Numbered from the whole stretch's first letter, positions 1 through 40,759 are shown. The stretch is 63,102 bases of DNA, filler included, from Neolecta irregularis DAH-3 (GCA_001929475.1; 12 parts of 12 records of this genome joined end to end with filler, not necessarily neighbours in it); one strand, 5' to 3'. Notes: generated by a model from the letters alone, not told the origin. Numbers and translations: made by a program.

Positions 1-204
1 CATACATACAAAATATACAAAATCTAGGTCCCTGTAATAATATCAATCGTGCTTCTATCAAACCGGGTTTTCACACTGCTTTCCAATAATCGAGACCGAG
101 CTATGTTGGACCTAATGTCTTTCCCGTATACTTTAGATAGCACAAATGGCACCATGTCAGTAACACATTTCCGCATATCTTCATAGGTGCGATCGTATAT
201 ATTC
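1..204 (-). repeat. Near-identical copy of the 3' end of the secreted PAN/NLS family gene (about 12850-13051); paralog fragment or haplotig
   Basis: Matches about 12850-13051 with a few substitutions (VKTRFDRS vs VKNRFDRS); cut by a 10-N gap. Confidence 0.85.
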
Positions 205-1318
205 NNNNNNNNNNAATAGACACGATCGAAATGTTGACAGGTTACCAGAGCGGTGATCATCCTCTCATTATTGAACGGCCATCGTCACTCGTGACCAGTG
301 GGGAATCGATATGTTCCTTGCCTATGCAACCAAATATTGCTGATGGAGCTACCAACGCACCTGTACAATTAGATGGTCCAGAGCGTCCTAGAAAGAAGGT
401 ATCCGACTCGAATATACATTATCCTGAATGTATGCGTAGAACCGAAAGGTAAAGTTGCCTCCCGATGAGTATGTTTGCGCAAGTTGCGGTACCACTGATT
501 CCCCCGAATGGAGAAAAGGTCCCATGGGACCAAAAACGTATCATGTTCCATTTCGCTTTAAAATGTAATTTATAGTCTCTGCAACGCCTGTGGCCTACGT
601 TGGGCCAAAAGAGAAAAGAAGCATTCAAGATTATCGGACACAAATCTCCAAGTACCCAACACTTAACCCAAGCCATCACGCTCGAATAGAAATACCCATT
701 CGGTCAGTCCTCTGTGTTTCCTAGAACCTTAATTGTGTGGGCTTCTCATTCGTCGGATTTCTTTCAAATATGATTTGCATTTCGGTAAATCGAGCATGAT
801 TTTACTTGTTCCCATTATTTTCCGGAATATTAATGGTCTGTACTTTTCCCAGTCAAGGTCATTTTGTGGAGTCTTTTCCCTGTGTGATCTGCATTTCTGG
901 CGTTTTGTGTGTTTGCACGTTGTAACCCGAAAGACAGTTAGATTGTAAAACACTACAAACAGATAATTTTGACCAAAACTAATCCCGTGTCTTCGCGTAC
1001 ATCCTAATATTGGTGTCCAGTTTTGCTATTCGAGTACTAATGTAGCTCTGGTTATGAATCATGCAACTAACTAACGGACTAATTCTATAACAACGCTTGT
1101 TGATTAATTAGTGGAAAATGACGAGGTACATCTCTGCGGTCAGAAATTGCCGACTTGGTCTCCTGCAATCTCTGGCAAACATTTGTGGAGACAACATGTT
1201 GATGAGGTTTGAATGATTTAACCCCGTTCGATTGAGATCACTAGTGAACTACATTCAAATCTCCATAAACGAATAAAAGACTGCGCAACCCTCCTTAAAC
1301 AGCATGACTGATGACTAC

Positions 1319-2611
1319 TCAAATTTTGGCAGCCGGCGCCTTCATTAGTGGTGGTCTTTCTGGGCATCTCCGGTCCCAAGCAGTATGACTTCCCCCACAA
1401 GTAACACAAACATACTCTTTCGGTCCCATTCCACAGGCACTCCTCTCATGCACCCCTGCACACATCGGACAAGTAGGCCATTTCGCTTTACACAGACTTA
1501 CCCCGTGGCCCCAACGATAACAACGACTGCACTGAATTGATTTTGGTTTAAATTTATTGCAAAGTATGATTTGACCGTTGATAATAATACCGTTCACGAC
1601 AAGATATTTCATTGTGGCGCTACTTGTCACACGGATTAATAGCGCGGAAGTTACTGGATGGTGACCTTTTCTCGTCAACCATGCAAGTTCGGTGATATCC
1701 AGACCGGGAACATTACTATTCTCAGTCGAGATTTTATCGATTGTTGCGTAGACGACGGGAAAGGAGAGGTTGATTGAATCTACGGGAACTCGATGACCGA
1801 CAACAGCGTAATTTTGCGATACAAATGGACTCGGTGAACCTTGTGAATGACCTTTAAACACTCGAGGGCTTTTACTGCCACTTAATTCAATAGACGCTGG
1901 ACGTTCTGGGCCGTCTTGGTTTGCAAGATCGAAAGATAAAGATGTTTGTTGCTTTCCTGAAGCAACTGGATAAATATCAGACCGGGCTCTCGACGATGGA
2001 AAGGCCAGTTGAGCATCACCATTTACAAGTTTCTCCAACCGTGGACTCTCCCGAGTCCAACAAGATCTCCATGGGCCACCTGAGCCATAATTTACAGATC
2101 CACATGTCGTCAATTCAATTGGACGATCATCTGGAATATGTTTGTCGAGTTGGTGGTAATTCGTGGTATGAAGCGATAATGCCAAACTTTTCGGCGAGCC
2201 CACTTCCGCAGTCCCACCTTCCACATTCATTTTTGAAGACGAAGGTCGAGATTCATTCGTACACGACCAATCAAAAGCGCTCATCGTCCTTCCATGTTCA
2301 TCGATTTCATCGGGATACGTAGAGGCGTGCGAGTGGTCAGATTCGGGTAGCGGCATTTCTATTGATTCTCTCTCAGACTGGCTATTGTCTGCACAGTTTG
2401 ATCGGGCTATACGGTCGCTTCTCGATAGAAAGCCGAGATCATTTACGATTTTGACGATCGAATTATAGATTCTGTTGTAGCCTCCTAATGTGCAAGTTCT
2501 TTGCTTTGTGTCGGTGCCCAGGGGCATATGCACGACATCGTCCAGCAATGATAAACTCTCAAACAGAACAGTGTCGATTGATCGGCCTCGGAAAGAAATT
2601 GATGAAGCCAT
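1319..2611 (-). CDS. LINE ORF1/Gag-like protein with three C-terminal CCHC zinc knuckles (paralog A)
   Basis: Motifs CSRCYRWGHGVSLC, CPMCAGVHERSAC and CVTCGGSHTAWDRRCP. Start placed at MASSIS (2611) because it aligns with the N-terminus of 4412. Confidence 0.8.
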   Translation of the reverse strand: MASSISFRGRSIDTVLFESLSLLDDVVHMPLGTDTKQRTCTLGGYNRIYNSIVKIVNDLGFLSRSDRIARSNCADNSQSERESIEMPLPESDHSHASTYPDEIDEHGRTMSAFDWSCTNESRPSSSKMNVEGGTAEVGSPKSLALSLHTTNYHQLDKHIPDDRPIELTTCGSVNYGSGGPWRSCWTRESPRLEKLVNGDAQLAFPSSRARSDIYPVASGKQQTSLSFDLANQDGPERPASIELSGSKSPRVFKGHSQGSPSPFVSQNYAVVGHRVPVDSINLSFPVVYATIDKISTENSNVPGLDITELAWLTRKGHHPVTSALLIRVTSSATMKYLVVNGIIINGQIILCNKFKPKSIQCSRCYRWGHGVSLCKAKWPTCPMCAGVHERSACGMGPKEYVCVTCGGSHTAWDRRCPERPPLMKAPAAKI

Positions 2612-2872
2612 CGGTATTGTTTGGTAGAGCTGAAGGGTTACGTGGAAATGGTGCAGTTTAGGGCGATGGCCAGCCAATCAGTCCCAACAGATCTTTGACT
2701 ACGTCATCCTTGAGATACCGAAATCAAAATTCCAAGAATGATTGGCGAGTGATATTGAAGACTATGTTCTCGTCCACAAAGACAACGTGTAACGCCAAAA
2801 CCCAGAGAGTTCCCCTCGCCAGTCATACATACACCCAACCAAATAATGCTATGCATCTTGTATTTTTGGAAT

Positions 2873-3840
2873 CTATCCGTGGACCTGATTGGTCGCAGCC
2901 GACCATCGTCGTCCTTCTTCCCAGACATTGTAGTTTCGTTCATTTTTGGCTACACGGCCATTGGCAGAGATGATCTCGTCGCCTTCACCCAAGTCAGTCG
3001 CTCGCGAGGAGGACACGTGTTGAGGGCCGCGGGAGGATGCAGAGCCGGATCGAACGGAAGAAAATGGACTGGAGCTTTGGCTATATGCAAGAGAGGGGAT
3101 GGTTGTTCCGTCGACTTGAGCAAGGGTCTCTTCTGTCAAAAGAGCAATGACGGGGGTGGGGAGGTTCATCTTCTTGAGCTCTAGGGTGTGAGTGGGATGG
3201 GTGGGGTGCATATACCCTTGCGAGTCATTTCAAAGTGAAGTCGAACCACGCTCTCTATTTCCCCAAACTGGTTGTCAAAGGCATCCATCCCGAAGCCTAA
3301 ACAGATGAGAGGGCGTGGGATGGAACGATGGCATACAGTTGTCTCGGTGGTTTGAGAGTTTTGTGGCGGCGATGTATGCGCTGAAGGCCTCGCTCAGCGA
3401 ACGGTGGTCCTCTTCGAGGATTGTGAGAAAGCTGTGCCTACCGCGTGAGATGGAGTGTATGCGCATACATGCCTGATTGTCGCGAGAATCATCTCGAGCG
3501 TCTCGACGTGGGCAAACAGCACGGCGGTTCTGGGCTTGTCGTCCTCGGAAAACATCCAGGTTGCGGGCACGCGCAGGACCTGGCGGAAGCGGGCGAGCAG
3601 ATAGAGGATGTTGTCGAGCATCGTCAGCGTGCCGAGCGGGTGGCCGAGCACAAAGTCGTAGATGTGGGCGCGGATGTTTTCTGCCTCGGACGGCAGGCGG
3701 CAGTATGCGGGATAGCCGACGGCACAGGCGGCCATGACGAGGCTGGCGGTGGTGGAGTGCAGGCTCGCAATCAGCTTGGACAGCAGCGGCATCGCAGGGC
3801 AGCGGCGGGCAGCGGTAGTAGGCGGCGGGGACATGGCCAT
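2873..3840 (-). CDS. Putative multi-exon hypothetical protein, GC-rich 5' part
   Basis: ORF pieces 3394-3870, 3275-3466 and 2873-3211 can be joined in frame through short G(T/C)..AG introns; no family recognised; ends uncertain. Confidence 0.4.
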
Positions 3841-3981
3841 CGGCGGCAGGGAAAAAAAGGGTGCGGGCAAGGAGAGTCGCCGTGGCCTGCGTGCCGCCTC
3901 TCCACCCGCACCCTTAACCCGCAGTCTTAACTGTCTGTCTGTGTCGCTGCAGTGCCGTCTACGTGCCTGTCTGCTGATGGC

Positions 3982-4143
3982 TATGGTATTCAGTGCTGTG
4001 GGGTGACTGCTGGTATCTATGGTATTCGGTGCTGTGGGGTGATTGCTGGTACCTATGATATTCAGTGCTGTTGGATGGATGTTTGATGATATCTAGATAC
4101 TCGGTGCTGTGGGATGATTGCTGATATCTATGATATTCAGTGC
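3982..4143. repeat. Degenerate tandem repeat of about 36 bp (about 4.5 copies)
   Basis: Unit like CTATGGTATTCAGTGCTGTGGGGTGACTGCTGGTAT; reads as STEYHRYQQSPH repeats on the minus strand. Confidence 0.85.
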
Positions 4144-4411
4144 GTGACGGCTTCGGGATGATGGATGATATTCCAGATGATTCTAATGCTAATCCTGAAT
4201 CAATACCCGGATATCCTGGTTCGTGCCTGGATACGGGGCAGTGCCGCATGTTTGCTGCAGGCGCGCTATACTGGCTGTATGCTGCAAGGCCAGACACCCA
4301 CCCTACTAGCGCACTCGCCACATTCATCTCATAAGCGATGGGCTCATTCAATAGCTCTTCGCCCCTGCGTCGTCCCTCCAGCATCCCCATACACGTCTGC
4401 AACATCCCCGC

Positions 4412-5394
4412 ATGCCTCCCAGCTCCTCTGCAACCCTCCCGGGCCTAGAGGGAGTCCTATCCACCAGCTTGGACTTGATGAACATGCTCCTCAATCTTTC
4501 CCAATCCCCCCTGACCCCTTCTTGCAAACGCACACCCACAGTTTACACTGACATTCAGCAAAAAGTCATAGACATTGTCGATGACTTGACCGCTCTATCA
4601 AACCGTATGCGGGCTTCGGATTCCGTCAGCTCCATCATTGGCTCTCACAAGGCTTCAAGTACGCCTTCCCAAAGTACCTCTGCTTGCTATAGCAGCGACA
4701 GCAGTCATGAATCGTTTGAAATGCATTCGCCTAGGTCTTCCAGTCCAGTCTACCAGGCCTGTACTCCAGCGCGCTTTCGGGTCACATACATCGCCCAACC
4801 CCCGAAACCGTCCCAGAGATTCTTTGCTGTCGTAGCAAAAAACCTTTTCGTTGCAGACTACCCAATCTCGCAAGGTGCTACCGAGAGCATCATTGAAAAG
4901 TTCGAGCTAGACAACTCCAATATCCCGGGATTTTGCATCCTCAACTTGCGATGGCTGACGAAGCCAAATTCCTCACCGCAACTCGGCCCCATGTTATTGC
5001 AACTATCTTCTCTCGCTTCTACCCATGCTGCAATCCAGAGCGGATTGAATATTGATGGAGTTGTCCATCCTTTGACTCGTTTCCATCCAGATCTCATTCT
5101 CTGCGGGCGATGCTATGAGTGGGGACACTTTATACGTGGTTGCAAGGCCCGAAACCCGACATGCGGCTATTGTTCAAAGCCGCATATGGCTCGTTCCTGT
5201 AAAGTATGTTGCATTTCCATCCCTCGATCACAGACACATAGTGTGCGTCTTGTTCTTCCGGATACGTGACCCAGCACTGCAGCCATATACAATTAAAGTG
5301 TCCAAACTGCTTTGGTAACCACGCTGCATGGGATCCTACATGTCCTGAGATACCTGAGTACCGACCTCGAGGACGGAATAATAGTCGCAAATAG
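4412..5394 (+). CDS. LINE ORF1/Gag-like zinc-knuckle protein (paralog B); probable intron 5204-5241
   Basis: CGRCYEWGHFIRGC and CGYCSKPHMARSC in exon 1. A 38-nt GTATGT..CATAG intron joins in frame to ...KCPNCFGNHAAWDPTCP...RK*. Confidence 0.75.
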
Positions 5395-5491
5395 GTATTT
5401 TGTTTGAGTTTGTAATTTTTGGGTCAAATATGAAACAAAACATTGGGAAACAAATACAAATTTATGCACATTGACCTGTAAACATACATTA

Positions 5492-7934
5492 CTAATGTAA
5501 ATAACACAAATCAGGATCTTTCGCATTATTACCCCACCAATGTGGAATTGCCACTCTGGGAAATGAAATGAACAGAAATACCATAATAACTGCCATGTTT
5601 GCTCCGCCTTCTAATGCAACATCCATAAGAAAATCGTATTTACGGAACCATCGTTCGTGATATCGTCGTAGCCAAAACATACTCAACACACTGAATATAA
5701 AACTCGTCGTGAGACCAGTAGCAGGTTCTGCAGGACAATACATAGCTCCGATGAAGATAATTGGAATGGAAATGAGATCCCATTTAAGATTTCGAGATTT
5801 GAAAATTCGAGAGAGTGTGTAAAGAATCAAGGGCAGAGTTGCCCCAAGAACCAAACCGTAAGGGATAATTCGAAATTGAGGAGAAGATAGGCTCCGCTTT
5901 GATCCAAGCAGTCCCCAAACCAAACTTGAAGAGTAGAAAAGACGTTCTCGCCGGGCTTCCCAGATGCCACCTACCGACGTACTGGTCAAGTCCTTTCGAT
6001 GCTCCGAAACAAGACTATTTGCAACTTGCCAATTTACGAATAATCCTAGAGCTGTACCGTAAAGCATCGATATCAGCATTGGCCGTTCTGGAATTTTCCT
6101 AAAGAGTTAGCCATTTGAACATGACACAAAAGCTACATGTAATAACCAAATTTGAAGAAACCAGCGAGGTGAAGGGCTTGGGTAACAGCATTTGAACAGA
6201 AGACGCGAAAGGTCATGTTGGCAAATGGCCGCCCTGGAATCACATACCCACCGATGATCTCAGAAACGATAGCAACATCGATTTTCTGTCCAGAGATTCC
6301 AAAAAGAATACCATCTGGAACAACAAAGATAGCCGCAATCGCTAGAGCCAATAAGACAGCCCACCAAGGAAGTTTGAATTCATAGAGATATCCAATAAGA
6401 GTGATGCCGGTGAGAGATAATAGGACAAACGAGTAGTATAACCAAATAGAGACGGGTGGGCTATGTTTTGTCAATGCGAGATATGGATCATCTGATTTGT
6501 GCCCAGGATGGAGAATCGCGCGTTTGATTTGAGGTCCATAAAACAGAGCCGTGAAGACAATTAATGAAGATGCAGCTCCAAATTGCCAAAAATATGACAA
6601 CGTAAGACTAGAGAGTTAATGTTACCGTAATCAGTAGAATGTAAACCTTGTACTAACATCAAGATCATCACTTCCTAACAAAGTCTCATTAAGTAGATGT
6701 TCAGGGGTGAGATAATCATAGACGATAAACTCGGTTCCATTTTTGAACGCCACCTCAAGACTATTTGGCGGAATAATGTGACTTGTTCCAAAAGCATTAC
6801 TAAAATAGATTGCTGGTGCAACAATCCATGTAGCAATCATAGCCCCTGCGAAGAAATTCATGCTGGACCAGAATGGAATCGTCAGAGGTTGAAGTTTGTT
6901 GATAATTTCCCAGTCAAGGGTCAATGAGCCAAGTGCGAATTCCTTGGAGCTGCCGAGGTAGTAACTTGCAAATGACCCGCCTCCAACCCAACAAATCCAT
7001 GGCAGCGCACTGAGGAGTGGAAAGATGGTGGTTGGGAAAAGTTGCCAAAGAAAGATCCCCCCAAAAATGAGAAAGAAGAATTTTTGTCGTTTCTTAGAGC
7101 TTCCTCCTTCTGTGTGTAAAGCATTGAAAAACGAGATATTGGGCAAATTGCCCTGAAAGTATTAGTCAATCGTATTTGAAAAGACGTACTGGGTAATAAA
7201 GAGCTCTTGGTTTGATCAAAACTGCTCGAAAGATACCAACAAAACCAAATCCAATGAGCTGGGAAGATGCGAGAAGGATCACAGCTCCGAGCGATGCCAT
7301 CCTGCCAGATTCCTCCCTAGTGGGACCGAAATAGAGGTCCATAGAGACCAAGATATCGATCGCGGGCCTATTACATCAGAATTTCCAAAAGCATGGAGCT
7401 ATACGCAACGGTCAAAGTAGCCCAATAGCACATAACAATCAGTGAATGTTCTTTGGAATTAAAGTGCCCAGGATTCATAGTGAAGGAATGGCCAATTACA
7501 GTCCATTGTCGAGTTGGTAGGCACCATGCCATGAAGAGACCCATGACGTAGCTACCCAGAGCAACAACTGAGGAGGGAAATCCCTCCCCATTTGGTAAAA
7601 GGTATTGCAAGGTGGATACGGCAGTTCCTCCCAGTACCCAGAATGTGGACAATATCCAGAAACGAAAGGTAAGTATTGGCAACGTTGCATCGTCATCAAA
7701 AGTTACCGTCATACTTAGAAGGTCTGGTATATTCTGTCTCTATCAGCTTCCTGGTTCAATATAATGTTCACCAACCTTATCCGACAATATATTCACGGAC
7801 ATTTCGGTACCAGCCGAATCAGTTCTCTCAAGAACCCCATGTTTGATAACATTCGGCTCTTCTGGAACAAGCTTCTCGTTGGACAAAGTGTAATCAAGAT
7901 AATCGGGGGCAGCAAGAGGCGGTGTGTTGGACAT
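5492..7934 (-). CDS. OPT-family oligopeptide transporter (multi-exon)
   Basis: Motifs DDATLPILTFRFW, NPGHFNSKEH, LASSQLIGFG, PGRPFANMTF, FKFGYYM, WWGN; many TM segments. Confidence 0.93.
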
Positions 7935-8424
7935 TCTGCATATGTTTGTGGAGGTAAAGGACCAAAGACAAGAGTGAATCTGAGAGTCTGCGTTGCCATC
8001 TGTTCCCGGAAATGTCCCGGAAATGTCCCGGAAGCGGGAGCGGATGTCGAAGTCTGGGGCTGGTTGACCAACCACCTGATTTCGCAGATGGAACTTTTCT
8101 TCTCATAACCCTCAAAGGCGCTCGTGTTAACATTTCAATACCCGTCTACATACAAAACTCCCAATTCAAACCAATTGAGATTATCCAATAAATAAGCAGT
8201 GCAATCTTTGGTTATAAAATAACTCGATATTCATTTACAGGTGTGATTAAAATACAGTGGATGTTTTGGTTGAGAGTTTTTATGAGACCGATCGCATTGA
8301 GAATATGTTGTAATTATTGAATATACCAAATTGTATGATATTTGGGCGAAAAGGGTGGCTCGTGAGCGCACGCTAAAATTTAGGGGGGAAAATTCGTTTC
8401 GCAACCTCGTCTACTCATAATGCA

Positions 8425-39994: not shown

Positions 39995-40759
39995 CTTGAG
40001 GATGATACAGTTGAAGCAGAAATAGTCATGAGGAGAAATAATAGTAGTGTTGGAAGAAATGGCAAGATAGAAATCAATTTATATTAGCAATTGTCNNNNN
40101 NNNNNGTCCATGGGCTGGGCTGGACCCTCAGAAAAGCCCATGGGCCAGGCTTTGGCCCATTGCCAACACTGCTTGGGGATGATACAGTTGAAGCAGAAAT
40201 AGTCACGAGGAGAAATAATAGTAGTGTTGGAAGAAATGGCAAGATAGAAATCAATTTATATTAGCAATTGTCNNNNNNNNNNNNNNNNNNNNNNNNNNNN
40301 NNNNNNNNNNNNNNNNTTAATTAATTAANNNNNNNNNNNNNNNNNNNNNNNNNNNNNNNNNNNNNNNNNNNNCCGCAATATGATTCCACGCCTCTTGCCG
40401 TATTGGTAAGGTGTACCTGAAGGGTACATTCTTACACATTATGGACACTGTGAAACTGGTTATTTATATATTTGCAAGATTCATGCTGGGTAGGCTCTTG
40501 CCCGATATGCTATCGGATTTTAGGCGGCTAGTCAGCCTTGATTTGTTCCAGTAGTGGTTGCTTTTGGAACACCAATATACAAGAATTTGCGTTAGTTTAT
40601 GCAGTGCGAAGTCAGAATCTTGCATGCTGATCTTTGGCTGTGTATTTTCATTTTCTTCTCCCTTGCTCGAGTTTCACTTTTGCCAATCTTCATTTTTTCT
40701 GTCCCGACTCGTAATCACGATCTGTGCAATAGATTCCAGTCTTGCCGCGTTCTTCCCGC

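Follow-up and report, generated by a model that had tools for sequence, protein, structure and literature searches.

A pair of knuckle-bearing genes in the genome of Neolecta irregularis DAH-3 raises the question of whether they are LINE ORF1 sequences that the host has kept or leftovers of transposition. The two genes, A and B, lie in a stretch of 63,102 nt that joins 12 parts of this genome with filler (the window), and an earlier note had put them forward, from the sequence alone, as a divergent pair of candidate domesticated retroelement proteins. The best reading of the results presented here is that A and B are LINE ORF1-derived genes kept by the host (exaptation), a reading that is unproven and to which we assign a probability of about 0.55.

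The A/B pair and its neighbours

Gene A (positions 1319–2611, minus strand) is a single-exon coding sequence of 430 amino acids plus stop, one ATG-to-stop frame in the ORF list; an identical predicted protein is on record. Gene B, on the plus strand, is read as exon 1 (4412–5203; 264 residues with an N-terminal helix, a Ser-rich linker, one RRM and knuckles 1 and 2), a putative 71-nt intron (5204–5274) and a putative exon 2 (5275–5394; 39 residues plus stop, with knuckle 3 at 5299–5346 by translation). The two genes are 1.8 kb apart and divergently oriented as first described, but a minus-strand gene with four introns, gene C, sits between them as a neighbour outside the pair (coding sequence 2873–3840; 285 codons, 4 exons). 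Because this spliced gene intervenes, A and B share no promoter. The coding sequence of C is interrupted at 3438–3472 (GC..AG), 3297–3336 and 3181–3215, and a further intron of 48 nt with GT..AG ends (4053–4100) lies in its 5' UTR, placing the transcript start at most about 300 nt from the ATG of B. The spliced sequence is a single open frame, for which searches returned neither Pfam families nor homologs, and its composition (GC 58%, GC3 0.85) stands apart from that of the other genes (GC3 0.36–0.61).

One contig (X2), running from 1222, 97 nt past the A stop, to beyond 5500 and covering all of A and B, skips the three coding-sequence introns of C exactly and skips the 5' UTR intron as well. 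No run is recorded as RNA; we take this contig to be RNA-derived because it lacks these four GT-AG or GC-AG introns. It merges several genes and gives neither strand nor level; its coverage of A and B may thus reflect read-through or antisense RNA.

The flanks are occupied by host genes (a GATA finger, an OPT transporter and housekeeping genes). A GATA zinc-finger exon (440–568, plus strand; Pfam GATA, E 6.8e-7, 29.2 bits vs a cut-off of 26.8) lies about 750 nt past the stop of A, and hence leaves no space there for an ORF2. On the other side lies an OPT oligopeptide transporter gene convergent with B: its last exon spans 5492–6079 (minus strand; Pfam OPT, E 2.7e-18), and more OPT exons reach 7739; the distance from the B stop to the stop of this terminal exon at 5492 is 97 nt, matching the roughly 100 bp noted earlier.

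In the 63-kb window, tblastn found no copies other than A and B, whose products share 34% identity over 128 gapless residues (BLASTP, E 4e-24). As read beforehand, both contain an NxNxPG..L.WLT block ahead of the knuckles, in the form NSN[VI]PG..L.WLT. Knuckle 3 is the best-conserved A/B block (11 of 19 residues identical, tblastn E 1.9e-4, dN 0.28). The proposed common helical N-terminus was likewise borne out: the N-termini align without gaps from Met1, with 20 of 72 residues identical and a local score of 49, vs a mean of 22.6 (sd 4.2) for shuffled sequences and reached by none of 500 shuffles. BLASTP did not report this similarity, and by phmmer it is weak (E 0.015); B is nevertheless the only match of the A N-terminal region among 177 fetched proteins, and the other 175 fetched relatives show no such region. 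The branches of A and B are long (1.49 and 2.29, the latter the longest in the tree, vs a median of 0.6), and this quick tree gives little support (SH-aLRT 78) to their grouping as sisters. Judged by their sequences, A and B are real paralogs.

RRM folds, knuckles and the frame of gene B

In the AF2 model of A, residues 1–85 (2357–2611, minus strand) form an N-terminal helical region (helices 12–27 and 39–85), predicted with block pLDDT values of mostly 54–79 over residues 11–80. Residues 266–357 (1541–1816, minus strand) are modeled as an RRM with the order β-α-β-β-α-β (block pLDDT 80–98), directly upstream of the knuckles. The best VIA match of this domain is the central domain of human LINE-1 ORF1p (2w7a_A; Z 7.6, rmsd 3.3, 86 residues), all 50 VIA matches listed are RRM-containing chains by title, and the top Foldseek matches are tandem RRMs (best E 5.6e-4). 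The RRM of B (residues 135–229, nt 4814–5098; block pLDDT 77–97) is modeled with the same topology, and 49 of its 50 VIA matches are of RRM type by title, the best being 3p5t_N (Z 7.4, rmsd 3.0, 78 residues). As VIA Z scores under 8 are middling, the fold assignment leans on the uniformity of the matches and on topology.

The earlier note had described Ser-rich linkers of different length behind the N-termini. In A, this stretch probably holds a degenerate first RRM (residues ~137–245; 1877–2203, minus strand), as suggested by strands and helices in the AF2 model, which is of middling confidence here (block pLDDT 51–85); B is without this RRM. Residues 135–358 of A align with tandem-RRM chains such as 9gpj_A (149 residues, rmsd 7.4), and an LVNGD stretch of A is aligned to LxSGD of the family. 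By sequence, comparison of the first-RRM region with relatives gave nothing significant (E at least 0.96).

The three CCHC knuckles of A (residues 361–416; 1364–1531, minus strand) fit CxxCxxxGHxxxxC, CxxCxxxHxxxxC and CxxCxGxHxAWDxxCP, as had been claimed, and their Cys/His columns show little or no variation across 44 family members. Pfam zf-CCHC (PF00098) matches neither A nor B even at E ≤ 1, and matches 7 of the 44 relatives weakly (best E 0.001); the Cys/His pattern itself is present. The family profile matches HIV-1 nucleocapsid (1aaf_A, E 2.6e-6) over knuckles 1 and 2, a likeness to NCp7 and Lin28-type knuckles that holds at the motif level only.

Whereas the 430-codon frame of A is intact, the claims of an intact frame and of triple knuckles hold for B only in part. 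Knuckles 1 and 2 (nt 5102–5200) lie in exon 1; knuckle 3 (CPNCFGNHAAWDPTCP, in frame within 5275–5394), which fits the family consensus CxxCxGxHxAWxxxCP, is reached only upon removal of 5204–5274. With this segment excised, exon 1 continues in frame into knuckle 3, and knuckles 2 and 3 are 9 residues apart, vs 8 in A. The segment starts with GTATGT, ends with CAG and has a branch-like GTGAC 9 nt from its end, a form similar to that of the gene C introns, which are 35–48 nt long. Its sequence features suggest that it is probably a spliceosomal intron. The RNA-derived contig retains the segment, and the unspliced frame stops at 5267–5269 after 21 unrelated residues; contigs keep the majority path only, however, and antisense or unspliced RNA may dominate. 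The public model OLL22716.1 (275 residues), of which exon 1 is a part, instead drops 30 nt (5204–5233), ends at 5269 and lacks knuckle 3.

LINE kinship and the missing ORF2

A full-library search yielded 2570 relatives at E ≤ 1e-3, and in all of the best 150 of these 2570 the matched stretch lies within residues 203–428 of A, i.e. in the C-terminal module alone. Pfam searches on 27 relatives found RVT_1 and Exo_endo_phos in two (P0007 and P0040) and PRE_C2HC only in a third. The former two, concatenated gene models that also carry PRE_C2HC, match A with E 4e-15 and 3e-12, so that A is significantly similar to ORF1 proteins that come joined with LINE ORF2 domains. In a relative on a fungal metagenome contig, an ORF1 remnant frameshifted across three frames abuts an RNase H tail; the RNase_H match (E 2.8e-4) is below cut-off, making the fungal link weaker. 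This remnant is how a dead LINE piece looks, in contrast to A and B.

Passages of PMC4120745 define type I ORF1p by at least one RRM immediately upstream of one or more CCHC knuckles, name I, Jockey, R1, Tad1, plant L1 and L2 as its clades and, extending the scheme of Khazina and Weichenrieder, distinguish subtypes IA (one RRM) and IB (two RRMs), each with three CCHC knuckles. A and B have this arrangement, with an RRM directly before gag-like CCHC knuckles, three of them in B if 5204–5274 is excised; A is like IB and B like IA. Fold and homology thus support the view that A and B go back to a LINE ORF1 that had an RRM and three CCHC knuckles, in agreement with the origin proposed before. Unlike type I ORF1p, A and B lie between host genes, single-copy by DNA contigs and cluster size, and without ORF2, B has a probable spliceosomal intron, and the N-terminal region is common to A and B only.

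Neither gene is the first ORF of an element with an endonuclease and RT ORF2 downstream, as judged from scans of the 63-kb window. RT/APE-bearing relatives used as tblastn queries matched the window at the knuckles only, and Pfam scans covered 23 flanking ORFs, 18 ORFs from across the window, of which 5 come from the flanks and the A/B interval, and, past position 6000, 61 out of 83 ORFs with at least 110 residues; none of these showed an RT, APE or RNase H family. Downstream of A and B, the space is filled by the GATA exon and the OPT gene, which abut the two 3' ends. Neither stop is followed by poly(A) or a simple 3' repeat, and the flanks of A and B are linked neither by terminal repeats nor by an inverted repeat at the DNA level. 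The absence of a downstream endonuclease/RT ORF and of poly(A), noted earlier from the sequence, is upheld by these searches, and mobility functions and termini have been lost (no ORF2, poly(A) or terminal repeats).

Two DNA contigs (X1; 3123 and 1881 nt) cross A and B into unique flanks at similar depth (462–589), with no second placement. Because they run into unique flanks, A and B are single-copy in this one DNA run, whose contigs hold no near-identical copy of either gene; in 90% clusters, each has one member on one contig. Intact LINEs with a similar ORF1 may nonetheless lie elsewhere in the genome. The genes had also been said to retain CpGs, unlike a Gypsy remnant. Their CpG observed/expected ratios (A 1.09, B 0.81, window 0.86) agree with the first part; the Gypsy remnant was not located, and the ORFs scanned contain no RT or integrase family.

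Probable exaptation and its alternatives

Selection on the pair was approached through sequence divergence. When A was left to decay neutrally by substitutions alone until domain identity reached 34%, the simulated frames gathered 15 stops on average, and none of 200 runs stayed open. Between runs, A shows two differences, one synonymous and one M395V. The synonymous divergence of A and B is near saturation (pS 0.65–0.69), making the apparent dN/dS of ~0.55 unreliable and host and transposon selection inseparable by it. Protein searches found no orthologs or close homologs of A or B.

A and B might be inert remnants of two LINE insertions that lost ORF2 by deletion, with frames still open through youth and RNA stemming from neighbour read-through. 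The family is indeed transposon-like, with RT/APE-bearing relatives and multi-member clusters on several contigs (the two largest listed have 9 members each, one of these on 10 contigs), and in another fungus a solo decayed relative sits among host genes. The lack of orthologs, an RNA contig that does not show removal of the 71 nt, and the fact that a contig spanning several genes is no proof of an A or B mRNA would also fit. However, according to PMC4120745 it is the 5' end that LINE insertions lose, while two copies truncated at the 3' end and 1.8 kb from each other would require two separate deletions just past the stops. In addition, the N-terminal region is private to A and B, yet 66% of domain residues differ, which argues for an old local pair rather than two fresh insertions. 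With no near-identical copy in the DNA contigs and no simulated frame surviving decay to the A/B divergence, we regard this explanation as unlikely. A more serious contender, although we would still bet against it, is that only A works, B being either a pseudogene, perhaps a young one, or a truncated variant with two knuckles, disrupted by 71 inserted nt between its second and third knuckles. In its favor, the RNA-derived contig splices the four gene C introns and keeps 5204–5274, the unspliced frame soon ends, the public model also lacks knuckle 3, and B, on the longest branch, no longer has the first RRM. Against this stand the intron-like form of the segment, the frame and family knuckle spacing that its excision restores, the majority-path nature of contigs and the conservation of knuckle 3, whose low dN and fully kept Cys/His residues would be unexpected for long-untranslated DNA.

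Drosophila HeT-A, a telomeric Jockey-clade element, has a Gag-like, CCHC-bearing ORF1 as its only coding sequence and borrows its RT; it is multi-copy, forms terminal arrays and still transposes. A and/or B might likewise be a still-mobile, ORF1-only non-autonomous retroelement, or A, C and B one unrecognised composite element. A and B resemble HeT-A in bearing a knuckle-containing ORF1 without an RT of their own, have RNA cover and, in A, an intact frame, and are inverted around the compositionally odd gene C. No multi-copy arrays of A or B were seen, though; DNA contig depth, unique flanks and missing second placements, the lack of terminal or inverted repeats and of poly(A) or simple 3' repeats, and the four spliceosomal introns of C render either version highly improbable.

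On the exaptation reading, the type I ORF1p of a non-LTR retrotransposon gave rise to A and B as two old paralogs. An ORF1-only copy may have arisen in the lineage and then been duplicated locally in inverted orientation; B would have lost the first RRM and probably gained the 71-nt intron, and selection would since have kept both as cellular genes. By analogy with ORF1p and nucleocapsid, RRM(s) and knuckles may bind single-stranded RNA or DNA, as expected of a chaperone or RNP-forming protein, and the N-terminal helices specific to A and B would serve for self-association or pairing. Control of LINE RNPs and a role on host mRNAs are candidate functions, as are the nucleic-acid chaperone and TE-restriction roles put forward in the earlier note. 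A bolder version, which we consider quite unlikely, envisages a lineage-specific pair of ORF1 decoys, captured from a Tad/I/Jockey-type LINE, that a very compact fungal genome has retained because their N-terminal helices co-assemble with or compete for LINE RNPs and thereby suppress retrotransposition. If so, the B intron, acquired post-capture, would be a clean host-gene marker, and the orphan, GC3-rich gene C might join the same functional cluster.

Host capture of LINE ORF1 is a known kind of event, although captures as cellular genes are rare in print. L1TD1 (PMC4161310, PMC11925450 and PMC11014241) is an RNA-binding, ORF2-less mammalian host gene domesticated from LINE-1 ORF1p, and the A RRM model aligns with the L1 ORF1p RRM (see above). 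The source of L1TD1 is a type II ORF1p (coiled coil, RRM and CTD, no knuckles), and the gene has orthologs and selection tests across mammals, whereas the source of A and B is type I, the host is fungal, and there are two paralogs, for which orthologs were not found. In Blumeria graminis, the EKA family (AVRk1, AVRa10) evolved from LINE ORF1, likewise a fungal co-option of LINE ORF1 sequence into host-beneficial genes; according to PMC4641428, it has more than 1350 homologues, stems from truncated degenerate copies and stays linked to its TE family, in contrast to the single-copy, full-architecture ORF1 proteins A and B in their gene-dense region. In the literature searched, nothing was found on these genes or on Neolecta retroelements. 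As exapted genes, A and B would add a new source protein (type I, RRM plus CCHC) and a new host lineage, an early-diverging ascomycete, and would make a compact test case for the function of an ORF1 protein that lacks its reverse transcriptase. A practical, if modest, yield is a corrected model of B that regains the third knuckle missing from the public one; another is the recognition of a spliced gene between A and B.

Architecture and kinship of genes A and B

Gene A, a LINE-ORF1-like gene on the minus strand, is an uninterrupted reading frame of 430 codons from ATG to stop (1319–2611). An earlier note on this DNA had described the frames of A and of its plus-strand paralog, gene B, as both intact; this holds for A, whereas the third zinc knuckle quoted for B lies in another frame (5275–5394, plus strand) than the first frame, which, as read from the sequence, runs from 4412 to a stop at 5267–5269. 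Taking out a putative 71-nt intron (5204–5274, plus strand; GTATGT start, CAG end, GTGAC branch-like site 9 nt before the end) joins the two frames; knuckles 2 and 3 then stand 9 residues apart, compared with 8 in A. We treat this intron as putative only, because a contig from X2, a public run that we judge to be RNA-derived (see below), retains the 71 nt. The public model of B (OLL22716.1, 275 aa, Neolecta irregularis DAH-3) removes only 30 in-frame nt (5204–5233), leaving a protein without knuckle 3, and probably needs revision at 5204–5269. B's likeness to jockey ORF1 is already known from the name of this model, 'Nucleic-acid-binding protein from mobile element jockey'.

A and B align in BLASTP over 128 residues without gaps (34% identity, E 4e-24), and their third knuckles agree at 11 of 19 residues. 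Their N-termini can be aligned gaplessly from Met1 with 20 of 72 residues identical, and the local score of 49 was not reached in any of 500 shuffles (22.6 ± 4.2). These values bear out the common N-terminus proposed before; by HMMER the match is collinear (12–69 to 12–69) and weak (E 0.015 among 177 proteins), and the remaining 175 proteins fetched show no convincing match in this region. Judged by their sequences, A and B are thus related beyond chance; tblastn over the 63-kb window found these two copies and no other.

Pfam recognized no family in A, and its one match for B was no better than chance (E 0.12). In an AlphaFold model of A (mean pLDDT 70.5; ranges refer to 10-residue blocks), the helical N-terminus described in the earlier note reappears as predicted helices at residues 12–27 and 39–85 (mostly 54–79). 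They are followed by a disordered stretch (residues 90–136; 35–49), a mixed α/β domain (142–243; 51–85), a β-α-β-β-α-β domain (268–353; 80–98) and the three knuckles (361–416; 74–89). The top Foldseek matches of this model in the PDB are tandem-RRM proteins (best E 5.6e-4, about 220 columns). A VIA search with the model listed first the central domain of human LINE-1 ORF1p (2w7a_A; Z 7.6, rmsd 3.3, 86 aa), aligned with model residues 266–354. Numerous other RRMs scored equally well, and each of the 50 rows has the title of an RRM chain. The model of B exon 1 contains a single confident RRM (135–229) and no confident first RRM; its top VIA row had Z 7.4 and rmsd 3.0 over 78 aa, with 49 of 50 rows being RRM-type. 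In addition, the family profile matched HIV-1 nucleocapsid over knuckles 1–2 (E 2.6e-6). Excerpts of PMC4120745 define type I ORF1p by one or more RRMs directly preceding the CCHC knuckles and place it in the I, Jockey, R1, Tad1, plant L1 and L2 clades. The predicted architecture of A and B is of this type. B's model resembles the one-RRM form and A's the two-RRM form, with a putative first RRM for which the model and the alignment of A's 'LVNGD' with the family's 'LxSGD' are the sole basis, as the region shows no sequence match to relatives.

A full HMMER pass with A against 1.84 billion representatives returned 2570 proteins at E ≤ 1e-3, of which 95 reached ≤ 1e-10; at ≤ 1e-30, A was the sole hit. 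B was the nearest relative (E 4.9e-18), and the best matched stretch fell within A residues 203–428 in all 150 relatives listed. Among 27 relatives subjected to Pfam, two (P0007 and P0040) carry both RVT_1 and Exo_endo_phos, and these two and P0018 carry PRE_C2HC. Together with the RRM and knuckle architecture, these relatives make the proposed descent of A and B from a LINE ORF1 well supported. The Atlas label of the nearest clusters, 'Gag-like protein' (Ascomycota, scores 0.90–0.91), serves as a lead only. A word-index protein search with A found nothing beyond A itself, and one with a 44-row alignment found three proteins, one of them a Botrytis 'CCHC-type domain-containing protein'. The clusters of 18 relatives bear a source name in four cases, all generic and none that of a transposon; the other 14 are nameless. 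A quick tree was built from 85 domain sequences, after 73 of the 156 matching proteins had been set aside for partial domain coverage, along with the window's own records. In it, A and B are weakly supported sisters (SH-aLRT 78) and group with the relative P0115 at 90, both on long branches.

A spliced gene between A and B

X2 yielded one contig of 4395 nt, from 1222 to beyond 5500, that skips 4053–4100, 3438–3472, 3297–3336 and 3181–3215, each with GT..AG or GC..AG ends on the minus strand. Because the contig skips four introns, we infer that X2 is RNA-derived, although its record does not state so. Removal of the three skips in the coding region (all but 4053–4100) gives a single 285-codon frame from 3840 to 2873. 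This minus-strand gene, gene C (2873–4100), thus has three coding introns of 35–40 nt and a 48-nt 5′-UTR intron, each of which the X2 contig confirms. One of them (3438–3472, 35 nt, minus strand) has GC..AG ends (GCATGT...TAG) and is skipped exactly, with a placement ambiguity of 5 nt. The 30-nt 'intron' of B's public model (5204–5233) is shorter than every intron confirmed here (35–48 nt). B's putative intron, over its first 23 nt (5204–5226), agrees at 16 positions with the start of C's 40-nt intron (3314–3336, minus strand; GTATG...TTCCATCCC.CG), which may be chance or a common 5′ motif of introns.

A and B had been described as a divergent pair. Their orientation stands and their adjacency does not, since the coding region of C (2873–3840) intervenes; A and B therefore share no promoter, and the true divergent neighbours are C and B. 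Both A and B lie entirely within the X2 contig, which stops 97 nt beyond A's stop codon; as a contig, it carries no information on the strand, ends or level of the RNA. We rejected A as the last exon of C, because the contig has no intron-like gap from 3180 to 2611 and A's start codon has a stop ahead of it.

For gene C, neither a Pfam family nor a homolog nor a usable Atlas hit was found, and a word-index search with exon 1 was empty. This exon has a GC content of 58% and a GC3 of 0.85, compared with a GC3 of 0.36–0.61 in six other window genes. A 36-nt tandem array (3972–4143, 4.7 copies, 79% matches) lies in C's 5′ UTR, partly within the 5′-UTR intron; translated in one minus-strand frame, it would give a 12-residue peptide repeat, although it is located upstream of C's start codon.

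Copy number, selection and origin of the pair

Two public runs contain the stretch, X2 and the DNA run X1. Contigs from X1 extend through A and B into their surroundings: one of 3123 nt covers 1200–3407 and continues beyond 1200, and one of 1881 nt covers 3893–5500 and continues into the OPT transporter gene. Their depths are alike (462 and 589), and no second placement fits. Since further copies that were nearly identical would interrupt contigs like these, each gene is single-copy at this level of resolution. The 90% protein clusters of A and B have one member on one contig each; the largest relative clusters among those listed are two with 9 members each. X1 splits into small alternative pieces at 3378–3438 and 3822–3891, inside gene C, which suggests allelic variation. 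Within A, X2 departs from the window sequence at 1429 T>C (M395V) and 1616 G>A (synonymous); it also does so at 3862 (T>C) in C's 5′ UTR, 22 nt upstream of the start codon, a minority variant also in X1 DNA. Most simply, these are alleles or strain differences; RNA editing at 1429 was rejected, since the other difference in A is no A-to-G change and the two runs are labelled with different organisms.

No ORF2 was found with either gene. RT/APE-bearing relatives match the window at the knuckles only, and no poly(A) tract was seen after either stop, in agreement with the earlier note on both counts. No RT, endonuclease or RNase H family was found by Pfam in 23 stop-to-stop frames from the flanks of A and B and the stretch between them, nor in 18 further ORFs, nor in 61 of the 83 ORFs of at least 110 aa beyond position 6000. 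Across 216–6000, DNA repeats comprised just the 36-nt array and a chance 23-nt pair, with no inverted repeat linking the flanks of A and B. The last exon of the OPT gene lies 97 nt past B's stop, close to the 100 bp estimated before. On A's side, a GATA zinc-finger exon (440–568, plus strand; Pfam GATA, E 6.8e-7) lies about 750 nt past the stop, convergent with A.

We suggest, with a probability of about 0.55, that A and B were captured as host genes. Two ORF1-only copies lie only 1.8 kb apart, have a private N-terminus in common despite deep divergence, each end against a host gene, and are each single-copy and RNA-covered, all of which favours capture. So does the tendency of LINE insertions to lose the 5′ end rather than the 3′ end (PMC4120745, excerpts). 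The frames themselves speak less specifically: substitution-only decay of A to 34% domain identity produced a mean of 15 stops and left none of 200 runs open, so something kept them, and selection on a host gene or within a transposon lineage would fit alike. Nei-Gojobori comparison of the N-terminal and RRM blocks gave pS 0.65–0.69 and pN 0.51–0.56, a ratio of about 0.55 that is not reliable because pS is near saturation. There are two main alternatives: that B alone is broken or truncated, a sub-case overlapping with capture, is a tentative possibility, and that A and B are inert relics appears unlikely. A search with the relative P0009 led to four metagenome loci, none with an intact ORF1 followed by ORF2; two of them, L003 and L004, hold the same decayed ORF1 copy. 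In L004, a 205-kb fungal contig, the frameshifted ORF1 relative (7001–8101) has its knuckles spread over three frames. An RNase H C-terminal remnant (E 2.8e-4, below the cut-off) directly follows it, and the genes around are of MFS transporter, squalene/phytoene synthase and Rad5-like type. This piece is an internally deleted dead LINE and, in contrast to A and B, shows what such a remnant looks like.

HeT-A Gag belongs to an ORF1-only element that is still mobile; a mobile element of this kind is a very improbable explanation for A and B. The closest known cases to capture, as far as excerpts of their descriptions go, differ from A and B: mammalian L1TD1 derives from a type II ORF1p, whereas A and B have type I architecture, and the Blumeria EKA family is multi-copy and TE-linked. 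In the literature searched, the genome paper's supplements excluded, we found neither a capture of these genes, nor the third knuckle and intron of B, nor the position of gene C. By analogy with the family, the RRM(s) and knuckles of captured proteins would bind and chaperone single-stranded nucleic acids, and the N-terminal helices might mediate self-association; a complex prediction for residues 1–90 of A and B scored 0.02, which gives no verdict either way.

Other features of the window

The 'EYVC..CG' stretch of the GATA exon resembles A's knuckle 3 weakly, a spurious match (tblastn E 0.85; 23-nt inverted repeat). Rfam had no match in window positions 1–8000. A Gypsy remnant mentioned in the earlier note was not located among the ORFs of at least 110 aa scanned (61 of 83 beyond 6000, plus 18 others). 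Elsewhere, the window contains housekeeping genes, including ERO1, Sec20, an RNase P subunit, an SNF2 helicase, primase and Sld2. Pairs of 44-nt N runs exactly 12 bases apart occur 13 times (for example, at 16994–17093, 18457–18556, 19869–19968 and 40273–40372), alongside four 10-nt N runs; the pairs look like masking or scaffolding, not biology.
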